DNA of 55,534 nt, counting the filler, from Perkinsus olseni (taxonomy: Eukaryota), in NCBI GenBank assembly GCA_013115125.1. It is 4 parts of 4 records of this genome, joined end to end, with 100 filler letters (N's around TTAATTAATTAA, not from the genome) between each part and the next. Parts side by side here need not be neighbours in the genome. Positions count along the whole stretch, not along the records: positions 27,863 to 41,664 come from JABANN010000743.1; 3 more parts are not named here. One strand, written 5' to 3'. Under the pieces are notes generated by a model that saw nothing but the letters and a program-made list of their open reading frames with translations, did not search any database and was not told where the DNA came from. Shown here in pieces: positions 17,773-41,664 of the stretch (positions are counted from its first letter, which is position 1; every line of letters starts with the position of its first letter). The position numbers and the translations under genes are program-made.

Positions 17773-19623
17773 TCAAGGGTGGCTGCTGCTAAGATCTTCT
17801 CCTCTTGATTGTATCTTGCCGCCAAGCGAATCGTCTGAAGATGAAGCATTATTGAAGCCTTGGACTGATGATGGAAGTATATCATCGTTACCTCTACTAC
17901 TGCTGCTAGCTCCACTGCTTAGTTGACTTGTATAACCATCAACAGATTCATCGTCAGTGGCGAGAGCTTCCTTCTCATCCTCTTCTACTTCCTCTTCCTT
18001 GGCATCTTCGACCTCGTCGCTACTCATCTTACACACATCGTCACTTTTGGACTTGACCTCAGATGAAGAAGCAGCAGCTAGTTCAGCATCCTCTTCTTGT
18101 TGACGCTTCTTAGCTTCACGATCAACACGATTGAAGTACGGCATAAGTGCTAAACACATGAATGCCCCAATCACACATATACCAGCCAAAAGTAAGTAAT
18201 AGTAATCGTAATGGGAACCATAGTACATGACAGAATCTGGATAATCTGATGGAGTAAAATCAGGCATCCAGGGAGAACATACTTGAAAGATGGCGCCAGC
18301 AATGAAATTTGCGATGGCGAAGAACAGCAAGTTAATCGCCGATGACACTGCTTTTAAATGGCTTGGTGAATATGTGAATGCAACTTCGTATGATGTTGAT
18401 GTTAAGAATATCTCACCAGCTGCAATTACCCAGAATTGTGGTACTTGCCACCATACGGATACTGTATATAGAGGTCGATACATAATAGCATATTCAACAG
18501 CAAGAGATAGTAACAATGAAGCAGAGCCCATAAGAGAACCAACACACATACGTGTAAGAACAGACCACATTTTACCTTTTGATCTAAGCCACGAATATAG
18601 AAGACCATCAATCAAAAGGGAATTAACAATAATGGCAACACTATCAATATTCTGCATTAATGCTGCAGGCATCTGCCACCCAAATGTATCAAGATTCATC
18701 TTCTCAGCCTGAGTCAACCATGCAGTAGTCATCTGATCATAGGCGATGGTAAAAGGTATGATGATGGTAAAAAGAGGTATCAAACGGAATATCTCTTTAG
18801 CATCCTCAATAAAACGATCATCAAATGGTCCACCTCTAGACTTCTTGCATTTCTCTAAGGATAGCTTGTAACAAGCATAACCGATAACTTTACATACCTC
18901 TAATACAGCAGATCCTTGGGGCTTAGGCTTAACGAATCTACCCATAACACCGCCATATAAGAATACAGCTGTCGCTATAATATAAGCAAAGAATGGTACG
19001 AGATATGCAACGAAGAAAGATACATCTTCGACCAATATAGGTGTTACGATACCACCGACAAGAGCACCAATATTAATACTGGAATAGAAATATGTAAAGA
19101 ATCTAGTAATGAGTGCTTTATGCAACTCTGGATGGAATTGTTGAGCACCCATTACATTGACACAACTTTTGATACCACCACTACCTAATGTGATAAGTAC
19201 CATTAAAGAGAGATGAACCATCCATGGTTTACATAACCTGGGAACTGATGCCACACAGAATAATGCTAGACCGATGGTATATACAACAGAGAATATGAGA
19301 ATAGTATTATACACACCTAACCACGTATCAGATAATACAGCGGCTATTAACGGTGTTACATATATAATTGCCTGGAAATCGGCAATATATGTATTGGCAG
19401 CAGAATCAGTATAACCCAAATTAACCTTAAGGAAGGTTTGTAAATTAGGGGTTAAACCGTAGAAAGCCAGTCTCTCACACATCTCTTGTAGTAATACGAA
19501 TATAGTCGCCTTCATCATAGGATGCTCATAATAATGGTACGTATTGCCATTAGGATCAGTCCATGTTAGGGGCTTATCCTCATCGGTAACCTTCAAATTA
19601 AAGAATGATTTCCAAGACTTCAT
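17773..19623 (-). CDS. POT/PTR2 proton-dependent oligopeptide transporter, intronless
   Basis: EMCERLAFYG (ExxER motif), GSGGIKSCV, FFTYFYSSINIG, PQFWVIAAGE; many TM helices and an acidic tail. Confidence 0.92.
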   Translation of the reverse strand: MKSWKSFFNLKVTDEDKPLTWTDPNGNTYHYYEHPMMKATIFVLLQEMCERLAFYGLTPNLQTFLKVNLGYTDSAANTYIADFQAIIYVTPLIAAVLSDTWLGVYNTILIFSVVYTIGLALFCVASVPRLCKPWMVHLSLMVLITLGSGGIKSCVNVMGAQQFHPELHKALITRFFTYFYSSINIGALVGGIVTPILVEDVSFFVAYLVPFFAYIIATAVFLYGGVMGRFVKPKPQGSAVLEVCKVIGYACYKLSLEKCKKSRGGPFDDRFIEDAKEIFRLIPLFTIIIPFTIAYDQMTTAWLTQAEKMNLDTFGWQMPAALMQNIDSVAIIVNSLLIDGLLYSWLRSKGKMWSVLTRMCVGSLMGSASLLLSLAVEYAIMYRPLYTVSVWWQVPQFWVIAAGEIFLTSTSYEVAFTYSPSHLKAVSSAINLLFFAIANFIAGAIFQVCSPWMPDFTPSDYPDSVMYYGSHYDYYYLLLAGICVIGAFMCLALMPYFNRVDREAKKRQQEEDAELAAASSSEVKSKSDDVCKMSSDEVEDAKEEEVEEDEKEALATDDESVDGYTSQLSSGASSSSRGNDDILPSSVQGFNNASSSDDSLGGKIQSRGEDLSSSHP

Positions 19624-33838: not shown

Positions 33839-35224
33839 ATGTCAAGTGGCAACAAACGCCGAGCCCTCGTCATTGGTGGTGGATTTTCCGGTCTCTTCGC
33901 GGCCCACGATCTTTCCAGTCACTTCGAGGTGACTGTGGTCGATGCCAAGGAGTACTTCGAGTACACCCCCGGTGTTCTGCGAGCCTTTGTTCATCCCGGT
34001 CATTACGATGCTCTGTCCTTCACTTATCAACATGTACTTGAGCGGAAGATGGGTATCAAGTTTCTGTGGGGCGAGGTGAAGCAGTTGGACGGTAGCCGTC
34101 AAGTCGCCCATGTGAAGCCTATGTTCTCTGAGACCACTGAAGAGGTACCTTTCGACTACTGCATCATTGCAGCTGGTTGTAACTTCGGTGTCTTCCACAA
34201 GTGGGGCGAAAGCCTTTGGTTCCCAACCATTCACGAGGATGCTCGACCTGAAGGCTCGTGGTCTCACATCGATGAAAGGTTCATCGAAGGTCGCCGTAGG
34301 CATATCTTTGAGGAACATGAGAAGTTGAAGGCTTTGAACAAGAAGAAGGCAACTGTCCTCGTTGTTGGTGCTGGCTTTATTGGTGTTGAATGGGTCACTG
34401 AGCTCCAGTACTACTTCCCTAATCTCAAGCTACACATCATTGACTTCCTGCCAAAGTGTCTGGGCCCTCTACCCAAGTCCGCCGCTGATTACTGTGATCA
34501 TTATATGAAAAAGAAGGGCATCAAGGCAACTTATGGTGTCAAGTATGCCCCTGATGATCCGGAGTTCTTCAGCAAGATCGGCATGAATGGCAAACCTGAT
34601 TGCACGTTCGTGTGTATTGGTGTGAAGGCGTCCAATTACTTCATGCCAAGAGAGACGCTTACTGGGTATAATCCTATGGAGGCTGATAAGAAAGAGAAGG
34701 ATGTCAAGAAGCGTGGCCCCGGTGGTGGAGGATGGATTCGTGTCAATAATAATCTCCAAGTCACTCAACTCAATGACGATGGTTCTGAGTCACTTTTCGG
34801 TGGTGGTCATATCTTCGCTGTCGGTGACTGTAACATGGTTCCTGGTCTGCCTCCAATCCCTAAGATCTCCTACCCTAGTGAAGAGCAAGCTCAACATGCC
34901 GTCCATAACATACGTGTCATAGACCATCTTGAGAAGGGCGCTTGGGCTCCCGGTGGCTGTTGTGGTATTTTCGGTAAGAAGTCTCTTCGTGATACTTGGT
35001 GGCCATGGGGTGCTGGTATGTTCGCCACTTCTCTCGGTCCTAAGGATGCTTGCTTCGTGCTAGGAGCTAAATCTACTCCTGGTACTGGACACATGGTGCT
35101 GTGGGGTAAGGCATCGGCTATTCAGAAGGCTCTTATTGAGTCTACCAAGACCAACGAATGCAAGAGGGGTCTCCTAGGGAGCTCTGGTTGGTATTTTGTT
35201 CATCATACACCTTGTATGAACTAG
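33839..35224 (+). CDS. AIFM2/FSP1(AMID)-like FAD-dependent NAD(P)H oxidoreductase, intronless
   Basis: VIGGGFSG, FDYCIIAAG, VVGAGFIGVE and IFAVGD motifs in the 461-aa ORF. Confidence 0.85.
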   Translation: MSSGNKRRALVIGGGFSGLFAAHDLSSHFEVTVVDAKEYFEYTPGVLRAFVHPGHYDALSFTYQHVLERKMGIKFLWGEVKQLDGSRQVAHVKPMFSETTEEVPFDYCIIAAGCNFGVFHKWGESLWFPTIHEDARPEGSWSHIDERFIEGRRRHIFEEHEKLKALNKKKATVLVVGAGFIGVEWVTELQYYFPNLKLHIIDFLPKCLGPLPKSAADYCDHYMKKKGIKATYGVKYAPDDPEFFSKIGMNGKPDCTFVCIGVKASNYFMPRETLTGYNPMEADKKEKDVKKRGPGGGGWIRVNNNLQVTQLNDDGSESLFGGGHIFAVGDCNMVPGLPPIPKISYPSEEQAQHAVHNIRVIDHLEKGAWAPGGCCGIFGKKSLRDTWWPWGAGMFATSLGPKDACFVLGAKSTPGTGHMVLWGKASAIQKALIESTKTNECKRGLLGSSGWYFVHHTPCMN

Positions 35225-35559: not shown

Positions 35560-35638
35560 ATGATGATACCCGTAATACCAGTTCTGCTACTGAAAACTCA
35601 TGTAGAGAACTCTTACCATTCATCTCTCATCGCACTGA
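35560..35638 (+). ncRNA. C/D box snoRNA, SNORD38/snR61 homologue, copy 1
   Basis: C box ATGATGA at 35560, guide CCAGTTCTGCT-A-CTGA (D'), second guide TTCATCTCTCATCGC-A-CTGA (D). Confidence 0.88.
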
Positions 35639-35657
35639 GACGAGAAAATGTGATCGA

Positions 35658-35836
35658 ATGATGATACCCGTAATACCAGTTCTGCTACTGAAAACTCATG
35701 TAGAGAACTCTTACCATTCATCTCTCATCNNNNNNNNNNNNNNNNNNNNNNNNNNNNNNNNNNNNNNNNNNNNNNNNNNNNNNNNNNNNNNNNNNNNNNN
35801 NNNNNNNNNNNNNNNNNNNNNNNNNAATCGCACTGA
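35658..35836 (+). ncRNA. C/D box snoRNA copy 2, interrupted by N gap 35730-35825; a 3' end ATCGCACTGA resumes after the gap
   Basis: Identical to copy 1 up to the gap; the gap may hide further copies. Confidence 0.75.
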
Positions 35837-35853
35837 CATGTATCGAATGTGTA

Positions 35854-35988
35854 CTTCTCCAGTCAAAAAGGGACTCTCTAGTTTTGGTGCTTGGGTGTCT
35901 AAGACATGACTGGAAGATAACCATGGGTAGTTCTCATTGATGCTTCGCTGCATTGTAGTGCTCGTGTCTGCATTACCGCTCGACATTC
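35854..35988 (+). ncRNA. Candidate H/ACA snoRNA
   Basis: Hairpin tccagtca/tgactgga with an internal pocket, H box AGATAA at 35915-35920, hairpin ggtagt/attacc, ACA at 35983-35985. Both 3' pocket strands begin 14 nt before their box. Confidence 0.65.
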
Positions 35989-36031
35989 CGCTGCTTTCGT
36001 GAACTACGCAAGCCGAGGCCGAGTATTCAAA

Positions 36032-36110
36032 ATGATGATACCAGTAATACCAGTTCTGCTACTGAAAACTCATGTAGAGAACTTTTACCATTCATCTCTC
36101 ATCGCACTGA
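36032..36110 (+). ncRNA. C/D box snoRNA, SNORD38/snR61 homologue, copy 3
   Basis: Same boxes and guides; two substitutions versus copy 1, both outside boxes and guides. Confidence 0.88.
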
Positions 36111-36129
36111 AACGTAACAACGATTGAGA

Positions 36130-36208
36130 ATGATGATACCAGTAATACCAGTTCTGCTACTGAAAGATCATGTAGAGAACTTTTACCATTCATCTCTCAT
36201 CGCACTGA
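36130..36208 (+). ncRNA. C/D box snoRNA, SNORD38/snR61 homologue, copy 4
   Basis: Same boxes and guides; extra changes only in the D'-C' linker (aagatc vs aaactc). Confidence 0.88.
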
Positions 36209-36292: not shown

Positions 36293-38269
36293 TCAAGACC
36301 CGTCAGGAATATCGCCATTGGCTAGAGTGCCCACTTGATGACATGATTCATCCATCGGTGGATATATTAGCTGGACAACAATAAGGCTATTACTTCCACT
36401 AGAGTAACCAAACAGATAGAGTATAGAAACGTATACAATGAAGGAGGCTCTATCAATCACATTGTATCTCCTCATCACCGCCACTCTGAAGGGAGTCATC
36501 GATAGGAAGCCATCCACAGTAGCTAGCAACACTACCTCAGTCTCGGGGGTGGGTGACGGCTCAGCAGGAAGGTCTTCCTCTGCTTCAGCCAGGCACTGAT
36601 AGTACGAAACATACCGAGGACACCGAGGAGAAGGCAATTACCTCTGGTTTCTCCCATACACTCTCTCCAGTAGCATCATTATTATAATATACCAAACCAG
36701 TATCATCAGCAGTATACTCAGTCCAATGGGTATGGGGAAGCTGGGGAACCGAATAATAAGAGCAGACAACTGATTCACTATTAAGAATACCTTTTTTCCG
36801 TATATACTCGGCGCACGGTCGAAGACCGTACCCGAGAGGTTCTCATGAAGCTTCTCGCAGGTGAGTTTAGCATGGATAGGTCTATTGGCATCTGATTCGA
36901 GCATCATCACCAGTGGAAGGTAACTGCATCAACCTACTCTTGAATACGAGGTTGCCGTTCATCTCATTAACACAATCCTGAGCTTCCTCTTTGGTAGAGA
37001 AAGTTACGAAGGCCACACCTCGATCTGATTGTTGACCATCCCGCACATAACACAGGCCGAGTATCTTCCGTGCTTGACTTCGTTCCCCTGTTGATGACCC
37101 TATTAGACATGCCCCTAATGAATAGTATGAGGATAACAATATCCAGTATTACCGATGCCCCGAAGTTCCCTTTTGAGTCTTTCGTCGGACACGGTCTGTG
37201 GTATGCAACCAATGAAAACCTTATTCTCGGGTACTCCTGAAAGCGACGACAAAAAGTAAACCTATGAATAATAAGGCACTCAAGGAGTACGAATACGAGG
37301 GCTCCGACTCCCCAACTCCGAGGGCTCAGCCATCTGATCCCACGCTGCAAGGCTGCGTTGGCGAAGGCGAGAGGTAGTGATGAGACTTTATCTACATTCA
37401 CGTAGCTATACCATCCAAAAGTCTAATCGGCGCATAAGGCAGTGAATCCCGCAGCTAGCTGAGGTACTGTAACCAGAGTCACGAGGTCACATTGCCGATA
37501 AACGCCCAAGGGTCTACACTTAAGTGTCTCGCTGTTCGAGACACAGAGTTGATTTTCCAATACATCAATTGAAGGCACTCTATACTCTCTGGAACCGAGC
37601 ACTATATTGATGCCAATCAATCCCCGCGAGCATGATACGCGCGGAAATGGCGGGTGCTTTGACCCCCAAGCGAACTTCTGATTAGTATACATTCCTCCGA
37701 GTGGTCAGCAGGAAATTCTCCGTTGACAGAAAATAAGCACCCGAGAGCCCCCCCAGCTGACACTTAATCTAATAATCATTGTAGGTCGCGGGGCTACTAC
37801 TCACAACAACGGACAGGTAGTATGCCACCGTACATGCTGATGGTCATCATGTCTACGATATAGTATACAGTAGCAGCACAGGCTGCTGTTGTTGTTCGAT
37901 GATGAGTGGTCCGAATATACTACCATCAACTTTGATCTCAGTACGTTGCACTTTGGCTGGTGGTGGTTGTTGTTGTTGCCCTTCTTCCTCTGTTGTGTTA
38001 TGATCCTCTTCCTGTGATACATCACCACCATCATCATTGGCAATACTTGATGAGCCTGGTATCATCATAATAATGATCCATACCCGTCACCCTTACTGTC
38101 CAATACAACTGCTGCTGTCGATGTTATTGCCCCAGCACCATCATCAACTACCGATGATGATTCAACCTGATCATCATCATCACCATACTCAATATAGCGA
38201 TGAATACCCTGTTACCTCTGAAGTATCCAAGTCGACAACCAATCCTGATGATACCCCTTCTGATGACAT
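36293..38269 (-). CDS. RRM + WW domain RNA-binding protein, multi-exon; 5' exons uncertain
   Basis: RNP1 RGVAFVTFSTKEEAQDCVNEMNG (about 36950-37025) and WW domain WTEYTADDTGLVYYNNDATGESVWEKP (about 36641-36740). Tentative start MSSEGVSS at 38269. Confidence 0.6.
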
Positions 38270-38456
38270 ACTAACAACAGATGGATGCTCCTGGCAACAG
38301 CAGTACAAAGACGCCGAGGGTCAGTTCAGTTCCGTCACGCGCCACGAAATTAAATCACATCATCATCTTCAGTAATGAACTTTCTCGCGTTGGGAGTGAG
38401 AACTTGCTCTCCCCAGTCCCTTCTTCTCCTTGTTGTTGTTGTTGTTGTTGTTGTCG

Positions 38457-41664
<3,208 letters not shown>

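Follow-up and report, generated by a model that had tools for sequence, protein, structure and literature searches.

A tandem array of snR61/Z1/Z11 (SNORD38)-family box C/D snoRNA genes with a candidate second rRNA guide in Perkinsus

Layout of the array

Within a 55.5-kb stretch of DNA from the shellfish parasite Perkinsus olseni (analyzed over its whole length and referred to here as the window), a preliminary description had noted a CRISPR (clustered regularly interspaced short palindromic repeats)-like succession of repeats and spacers, which it interpreted as a tandem cluster of genes for a small nucleolar RNA (snoRNA) of the snR61/SNORD38 box C/D type. Our analysis bears out this interpretation. 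The repeats, at positions 35560-36208 on the + strand, represent five or more tandem genes for a single snR61/Z1/Z11 (SNORD38)-family box C/D snoRNA in the Perkinsus nuclear genome, and all four copies that can be read score above the cut-off of the corresponding Rfam family (RF00476). Direct reading of the sequence gave units of 79 nt recurring with a period of 98 nt. Five copies are visible, comprising the four readable ones and the tail of a fifth beyond a gap of 96 N. The features of the array are as follows (positions are those of the window; bit scores are for RF00476, cut-off 45):

35560..35638, + strand: snoRNA gene copy 1, 79 nt; 46.4 bits
Copy 1, 5' half: C box 35560-35566; D' guide 35578-35588; D' box 35590-35593; C' box (AUGUAGA) 35600-35606
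Copy 1, 3' half: CUUACCA 35612-35618; D guide 35619-35633; D box 35635-35638
35639..35657, + strand: spacer between copies 1 and 2, 19 nt; unlike the homologous spacer 36111-36129 at 10 of 19 positions
35658..35729, + strand: snoRNA gene copy 2, first 72 of 79 nt, followed by the N run; 46.1 bits
35730..35825, no strand: assembly gap within the array, 96 N
35826..35836, + strand: tail of a further copy, last 11 nt (AATCGCACTGA), i.e., the end of the D guide and the D box
35837..36031, + strand: unique stretch parting the two halves of the array, 195 nt, with no supported RNA gene
36032..36110, + strand: snoRNA gene copy 3, 79 nt; 49.1 bits
Copy 3, 5' half: C box 36032-36038; D' guide 36050-36060; D' box 36062-36065; C' box 36072-36078
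Copy 3, 3' half: UUUACCA 36084-36090; D guide 36091-36105; D box 36107-36110
36111..36129, + strand: spacer between copies 3 and 4, 19 nt
36130..36208, + strand: snoRNA gene copy 4, 79 nt; 48.2 bits

Repeat searches recovered the same arrangement. Tandem Repeats Finder reported a repeat at 36031-36208 with a period of 98, 97% matches and a score of 342, and a separate search returned a two-copy block of 171 nt with 91% identity (copy pair 1-2 versus copy pair 3-4), as well as a family with four copies of the unit end ATCGCACTGA, the tail fragment among them. The coordinates and the geometry of 79-nt units and 19-nt spacers given in the preliminary description hence stand, while its count of four or more repeats needs amending to five visible copies, with copy 2 incomplete. 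Provided that the 96 N give its true size, the gap would accommodate the missing end of copy 2, one spacer and the greater part of exactly one more unit. The end of that unit as expected from the 98-nt period is 35834, and the observed end is 35836. The first base past the N run, at position 35826, is an A versus a C in the other copies, and lies inside the second (D) guide, seven bases before box D. It may represent a real variant copy or an assembly-edge error, and because it borders the N run we do not rely on it.

Family identity and unit architecture

A comparison with Rfam covariance models, which had been suggested along with the preliminary description, was run over the whole window at gathering thresholds. 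It gave four matches, all to RF00476 (snosnR61, covering snR61/Z1/Z11; clan CL00051). The four readable copies scored 49.1, 48.2, 46.4 and 46.1 bits against the gathering cut-off of 45, with window-wide E-values of 2.6e-4 to 1e-3. As these are four independent matches above the gathering score, the repeats are more than a chance resemblance. No other Rfam family reached its cut-off anywhere in the 55.5-kb window. In a permissive scan, lower-scoring members of the same clan overlapped the copies. Sub-threshold matches included Tetrahymena TtnuCD8 (RF02285; 30.5 bits versus a cut-off of 70), whose alignment shares the D' guide, the C' region and a CUUACC element, and sn1185, a box C/D family with the same guide whose consensus contains CCAGUUCUGCUACUGA. 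A simple window-wide scan for other C...D units with 12-nt perfect complements to large-subunit (LSU) ribosomal RNA (rRNA), using LSU fragments from other organisms as queries, returned this array alone.

The elements of the unit can be mapped as follows:

Unit positions 1-59: C box 1-7; D' guide CCAGUUCUGCU 19-29; D' box CUGA 31-34; C' box AUGUAGA 41-47; (C/U)UUACCA 53-59
Unit positions 60-79: 15-nt stretch UUCAUCUCUCAUCGC 60-74; single A 75; D box CUGA 76-79

The C box AUGAUGA (consensus RUGAUGA) occupies unit positions 1-7 in all four readable copies, and the three complete copies, like the tail fragment, have the D box CUGA at 76-79, that of copy 2 falling in the N gap. The C' box AUGUAGA agrees with RUGAUGA at 5 of 7 positions, and the family consensus itself reads UGAaGA in this region. 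Folding indicated an internal hairpin and weak pairing of the ends; neither a promoter nor a terminal stem was seen. In the hairpin, which is located at 36049-36082 in copy 3 and is alike in the other copies, GUUCUG, from the 3' part of the D' guide, together with the D' box can form pairs with the C' region and the adjoining downstream AGAAC. The 99-nt stretch holding this hairpin folds with z = -2.44. The predicted hairpin may be the stem of the C'/D' motif, or it may mask the guide through self-pairing.

The two halves of the array are parted by the unique 195-nt stretch at 35837-36031, in which a hairpin of 62 nt followed by AGAUAA was observed at 35856-35920. The presence of a second snoRNA of the H/ACA type in this stretch was considered and rejected, as the best Rfam match was weak (ceN126, 23.3 bits versus a cut-off of 80) and the fold was not unusual relative to shuffled sequences (z = -1.19; 23 of 200 shuffles fold as well).

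Constraint on the units

Comparison of the two homologous blocks (copy 1-spacer-copy 2 versus copy 3-spacer-copy 4) revealed 16 differences in 170 nt, and these are distributed very unevenly: 10 fall in the 19 positions of the spacer and 6 in the 151 positions of the snoRNA units (Fisher P = 1.3e-7). The whole unit is clearly under constraint, since the spacer has diverged while the units have been kept. The only variable positions of the unit are 12, 37, 38 and 53, all of which lie outside boxes C, D' and D and both guides, as had been proposed from the initial inspection of the repeats. The probability that all four would miss these elements by chance is 0.049. For the 15 nt of the second guide alone the pattern is weakly informative, the chance of finding none of the four variable sites there being 0.42.

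The first guide and its target

The 11-nt D' guide is the reverse complement of the LSU sequence AGCAGAACUGG. Its fifth base from box D' (a U at unit position 26) lies opposite the second A of AGCAG, so that the suggestion of a SNORD38-type D' guide directed to an A by the D+5 rule holds for both the complement and the position of the A. The duplex comprises 11 bp with an energy of -19.5 kcal/mol, as calculated against environmental LSU loci. The target string was present in every LSU locus fetched, and the Rfam eukaryotic LSU consensus at this position is AGCAgaAgUGG. The site of yeast snR61 is 25S Am1133. The human site of SNORD38, which is given as 28S A1858 in a table excerpted from one source (PMC6466398) and as A1871, in helix 39, in an excerpt of another (PMC12288042), corresponds to the D' target here.

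The second guide and its target

Ahead of box D, 15 nt of the unit are complementary to the LSU sequence GCGAUGAG(G/A)GAUGAA, which directly abuts the first target. We assessed this pairing by predicting a contiguous 25-nt LSU string from both guides and scanning metagenome contigs for it, with A or G allowed at one position. The test material consisted of environmental eukaryotic LSU contigs, together with the Rfam LSU consensus. The exact string occurred in at least 99 metagenome contigs, and all four loci that were tested are LSU_rRNA_eukarya. Among the matches listed, the wobble position is G in 98 of 99 and A in one (L031), while the string is preceded by ..TGGTA in 98 of 99 and followed by CCT.. 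in 98 of 99. The exception in the flanks is L018, where the contig is cut 1 nt upstream of the match and TTT lies downstream. Many lineages carry the string, given that 84 of the 85 listed contigs with full context differ from one another.

Because environmental LSU loci carry the 25-nt string, the second guide is predicted to pair with GCGAUGAGGGAUGAA, as had been proposed for the stretch before box D, and the complement is found in both the environmental LSU loci and the Rfam consensus. Among the matches listed, this pairing would involve 14 Watson-Crick pairs and one G-U pair (98 loci) or 15 Watson-Crick pairs (L031), with a duplex energy of -25.8 (G variant) or -26.7 kcal/mol (A variant), compared with -19.5 kcal/mol for the D' guide. 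The abutting site was also the best ungapped match to the D guide (15 of 15 pairs) in 98 of the 99 loci listed, with the next best matches elsewhere reaching 10-13 of 15; the exception is L018, in which the site occurs twice.

The position of the pairing relative to box D is equally specific. Pairing begins at the second base before box D, the guide ending one base before the box, and the fifth base from box D (a U at unit position 71) lies opposite the A of GCGAUG, forming a U-A pair with no mismatch. The 15 pairs compare with a minimum of about 10 bp for a guide of a double-guide methylation snoRNA, whose pairing should stop one or two bases short of box D. The register of methylation guides is set by the fifth-base-pair rule (as described in an excerpt of PMC3116282), and the register of the putative second guide is that expected for a methylation guide. 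The predicted second target A is located exactly 10 nt downstream of the first, in agreement, in both register and distance, with the roughly 10 nt that had been anticipated.

A ribose methylation with the same offset is found in mammals. The human site of SNORD48 is given as 28S C1868 (excerpt of PMC5389715) or as C1881, in helix 39/40 (excerpt of PMC12288042), and the SNORD38 and SNORD48 sites are 10 nt apart in both numbering schemes. Hence, the nucleotide at the same offset as our second target is ribose-methylated in mammals.

Two of the listed loci stand out. L031, at positions 798-822 of the contig, is the sole one of 99 with an A at the wobble position, and hence a perfect 15-bp match; its flanks (CCATTCTTGGTA ... 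CCTAATGTT) group with L021, L051, L058 and L066. L018 carries the second-guide target twice (12-26 and 263-277, 251 nt apart) and the first-guide target once, and may be a chimeric or rearranged contig.

A search for dual-guide orthologues with a gapped pattern gave none in prokaryote-genome contigs and none in viral contigs. This result is not evidence of absence, because these collections hold almost no eukaryotic DNA.

Target structure and a third complementary element

The second LSU target segment agrees closely with the Rfam eukaryotic LSU consensus, which reads GGUAAGCAgaAgUGGCGAUGcGGGAUGAACCgAA, with the second target A in upper case and unpaired. In the Rfam LSU model, a hairpin (GCCAcUuuUG / loop GUAAG / CAgaAgUGGC) is followed by unpaired GAUG and then by a small hairpin (cGG-GAUGAA-CCg). 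The D' guide target thus represents the loop end and the 3' strand of the helix-39 hairpin, with the first target A as the second base of that strand. The target of the second guide extends from the linker into the small hairpin that follows: the second target A lies in the unpaired linker, and the remainder of the duplex spans the 5' strand and the loop of the small hairpin. The consensus 'c' position is an A in all 99 loci listed, with CCU opposite in 98 of them (UUU in L018), and the guide has the matching U; the A with CCU opposite is a predicted compensated A-U pair. We also considered whether a UUCAUC strand further downstream might be the partner of the second target in mature rRNA, in which case the guide would imitate that strand. 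This was not supported: when 25 of the 84 distinct LSU contexts were aligned and folded, the strand paired with GAAUGRACUA, with compensatory changes, and the Rfam model places the second target in the linker and small hairpin.

A third, shorter element of the unit is also complementary to this region. The (C/U)UUACCA at unit positions 53-59 is the complement of UGGUAAG, which in the helix-39 hairpin makes up the final two bases of the 5' strand and the loop, and UGGUAAG was present upstream of the target in 98 of the 99 loci listed (L018 being cut 1 nt upstream of its match). The three parts of the snoRNA are together complementary to about 30 contiguous LSU nucleotides. The UACCA of the units aligns to upper-case RF00476 consensus; the consensus UACCAAAa is itself complementary to UUUUGGUA, and TtnuCD8 has gCUUACC. 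In yeast, snR61 is one of 13 snoRNAs described as having conserved elements complementary to the sequence immediately beside the methylation site (excerpt of PMC3116282), and van Nues et al. (2011), in the same excerpt, suggested that such extra pairing docks the small nucleolar ribonucleoprotein (snoRNP) and helps to open local structure, with snR61 mentioned by name. We infer that UACCA is probably the element meant by these authors.

Genomic setting

The array lies between two convergent genes, given that the upstream open reading frame (ORF) is on the + strand and the downstream ORFs are on the - strand:

33839..35224, + strand: upstream neighbor, intronless FAD/NAD(P) oxidoreductase ORF (Pyr_redox_2, E = 2e-21)
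36585..37148, - strand: downstream neighbor, exon-like ORFs (RRM_1 30.4 bits and WW 29.8 bits, each exceeding its cut-off)

The stop codon of the oxidoreductase (35224) is located 335 nt before copy 1, on the same strand as the array, and this gene is a possible source of read-through transcription over the array. Families identified among the ORFs of the window are eukaryotic (ATG22, PTR2, M18 aminopeptidase and the Pyr_redox_2 oxidoreductase). The PTR2 transporter ORF (17773-19623, - strand) is 96% identical to a P. olseni protein, and 75% and 73% identical to proteins of P. chesapeaki and P. marinus, respectively, which places the host within Perkinsus, nearest to P. olseni. Elsewhere in the window, low-complexity DNA at 37800-38800 contains several overlapping ORFs on both strands with many homopolymer runs (of N, H, S, C, L, V, A, T, R and D), and the G+C content varies by block, being 0.47-0.56 at 1-14 kb, approximately 0.39-0.43 at 14-28 kb, 0.45-0.48 at 28-42 kb and 0.36-0.39 from 42 kb on.

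Proposed function and alternative explanations

The interpretation we favor, with a probability of roughly 0.62, is that the array encodes a snoRNA with two methylation guides and a short docking element. Once bound by the box C/D core proteins (fibrillarin, Nop56, Nop58 and Snu13), the RNA from each 79-nt unit would pair with the LSU rRNA precursor and direct 2'-O-methylation of one A residue through each guide. A docking ('extra base-pairing') contact as in yeast snR61 would be made by the short UUACCA element, and the units would be released from a common, multi-copy precursor transcript through trimming of the 19-nt spacers. The host LSU would be expected to carry an A...AG(G/A) variant of the second target.

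Several points weigh against this interpretation. RNA production from the units and methylation of either A are predicted from sequence, and the case for the second target draws on environmental LSU loci and the Rfam consensus, not on the host's own LSU. None of the 99 LSU loci listed could be tied to Perkinsus (at most 3 mismatches) with the genus-level internal transcribed spacer (ITS) primers PerkITS-85 and PerkITS-750 (PMC6657052, Table 1), a null result that says little because many of these loci end short of the ITS. With AUGUAGA matching five of seven consensus positions, the C' box is degenerate; the freedom of the second guide from substitutions is not significant by itself (P = 0.42); and the A-for-C at 35826, a possibly unreliable base, falls inside that guide. 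In the Rfam LSU alignment, the A of L031 that perfects the second duplex forms a non-standard pair in the small hairpin. Moreover, the two guides could not both be fully paired to one rRNA at once, because their duplexes abut and share one G. With respect to the human precedent, one review table places SNORD48 at 28S-C2279 (PMC6466398), and treating human and protist positions as equivalent assumes an ungapped alignment over the 10 nt in question.

A possible but clearly less likely explanation is that the 15-nt stretch is an unusually long 'extra base-pairing' of the snR61 type and not a methylation guide, so that the second A stays unmethylated. The pairing would then hold the snoRNP on the rRNA flank, help to open the helix-39 hairpin or raise methylation at the D' site, or it would act purely as a folding clamp. 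This explanation is kept alive by the G shared between the abutting duplexes, whereby the second could serve the first, and by the precedent of snR61. We also know of no yeast methylation 10 nt downstream of the snR61 site, which we count in its favor, and the family consensus keeps UACCA(AAA) in the 3' half, as TtnuCD8 keeps CUUACC. The precedent itself consists of the inclusion of snR61 among the 13 yeast snoRNAs with flank-complementary elements, for which docking and opening were suggested (excerpt of PMC3116282). However, the extra pairings quoted there are shorter than the 15 bp found here (e.g., 4 bp for snR87), and the stretch is in exact guide register: a single base parts it from a canonical box D, its fifth base faces an A, and the surrounding pairs are free of mismatches. 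In human rRNA, moreover, a site at the same offset is methylated with the help of another snoRNA. We favor a double guide over a helper pairing on account of the guide register, this human precedent and the canonical terminal C/D motif beside the second guide, although the two are not mutually exclusive.

More doubtful is an extension in which one snoRNA particle does the jobs of both human SNORD38 and SNORD48, as a stepwise clamp and local folding chaperone for this region of LSU domain II. Its three elements would cover about 30 contiguous LSU nucleotides, from the loop of helix 39 to the loop of the next hairpin. The particle would dock on the loop, unzip helix 39, methylate the first A and then hand over to the second guide. 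It would be a chaperone as much as a methylation guide, and the multi-copy tandem dosage would reflect this structural role.

It is very improbable that the units are decayed or silent copies, i.e., a small satellite seeded by a snoRNA gene or a retro-copy, with the functional gene elsewhere. The array does lie in a gap-containing and possibly mis-assembled stretch, and it shows neither promoter nor terminal stem. The contrast between spacer and units (10 of 19 versus 6 of 151 positions differing, P = 1.3e-7) nevertheless makes silent repeats unlikely, the boxes and both guides are intact in every readable copy, and all four of these copies score above the Rfam cut-off.

The visual pattern, which is all that the label 'CRISPR-like' reflected, and a sub-threshold match to CRISPR-DR38 (16.4 bits versus a cut-off of 44) might suggest a CRISPR array or some other repeat of prokaryotic or mobile origin. 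This explanation can be dismissed: it is refuted by the eukaryotic context (ATG22, PTR2 and M18 aminopeptidase, with Perkinsus proteins the closest) and by repeats that score above the cut-off of a snoRNA family, and units of 79 nt with 19-nt spacers reverse the proportions of CRISPR arrays (repeats of about 23-50 nt and spacers of similar size).

Comparison with known systems

The units share with RF00476 their terminal boxes (C at the 5' end, D at the 3' end), the CAGUUCUGCU guide with CUGA (box D') after it, a C' region of the form UGxAGA and, in the 3' half, the UACCA element. They differ in that the Perkinsus 3' half has the 15-nt rRNA-complementary stretch, which is aligned as a 6-nt insertion relative to the consensus, and in the arrangement of at least five copies in tandem. 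The flank-pairing element is also shifted by two bases, pairing with UGGUAAG here and with UUUUGGUA in the consensus. Human SNORD38, which belongs to the same Rfam clan as RF00476 (CL00051), has to our knowledge no second guide for the neighboring site. SNORD38A/B also differ in genomic setting, their human host gene being RPS8 (per the excerpted table of PMC6466398), whereas the array here lies between two convergent protein genes.

SNORD48 resembles the predicted D guide in the offset of its human site, 10 nt downstream of that of SNORD38. In contrast, it is a separate RNA in human and its target base is a C, not an A; the Rfam SNORD48 model gave no match to copy 3 up to E = 10. Tetrahymena TtnuCD8, from an alveolate relative, has the same D' guide and C' region, with CUUACC just before box D, but its consensus is without the 15-nt second guide (30.5 versus 70 bits). 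A literature search on the TtnuCD8 name found no paper.

Similar relationships between guides and neighboring rRNA have been described, both as flank-complementary elements (extra base-pairing, in the excerpt of PMC3116282) and as single snoRNPs that modify several sites in one rRNA region (in an excerpt of PMC5389607). The Perkinsus pairing differs from the extra base-pairing described in the former excerpt in that it amounts to 15 bp, is in guide register by box D and, with the other elements, covers both flanks of the D' target. The preliminary description had presented the second pairing as a novel inference, which overstates the case: flanking extra pairing is reported for yeast snR61 itself (PMC3116282, as excerpted), snoRNPs with several sites have been described (PMC5389607, likewise), and the site falls at the offset of human SNORD48.

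Regarding the tandem arrangement, plants, trypanosomatids and Euglena have tandem or polycistronic snoRNA clusters in one orientation, with short spacers and presumably one precursor. These clusters usually mix different snoRNAs, whereas the Perkinsus array repeats a single one.

Implications

The snoRNA family, double guides and flanking extra pairing are already known, as are tandem snoRNA arrays in protists and plants. New here are the organism and a candidate lineage-specific second guide, which would join a SNORD38-type site and a SNORD48-position site on one RNA. A literature search by title or start of abstract found no paper on the snoRNAs of Perkinsus or dinoflagellates, and none on Perkinsus rRNA modification. 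Current understanding is not overturned by this locus, as routine Rfam annotation would already flag these genes, and they are of an ordinary kind with a likely extra second guide. For Perkinsus, the array provides a first concrete locus of a box C/D snoRNA. Should the second guide be active, guide functions would have been redistributed between snoRNAs in evolution, with two adjacent sites handled by one RNA here and by two in mammals. The locus would also offer a natural case in which long flanking complementarity may act as a guide, as a helper of the neighboring guide, or as both.

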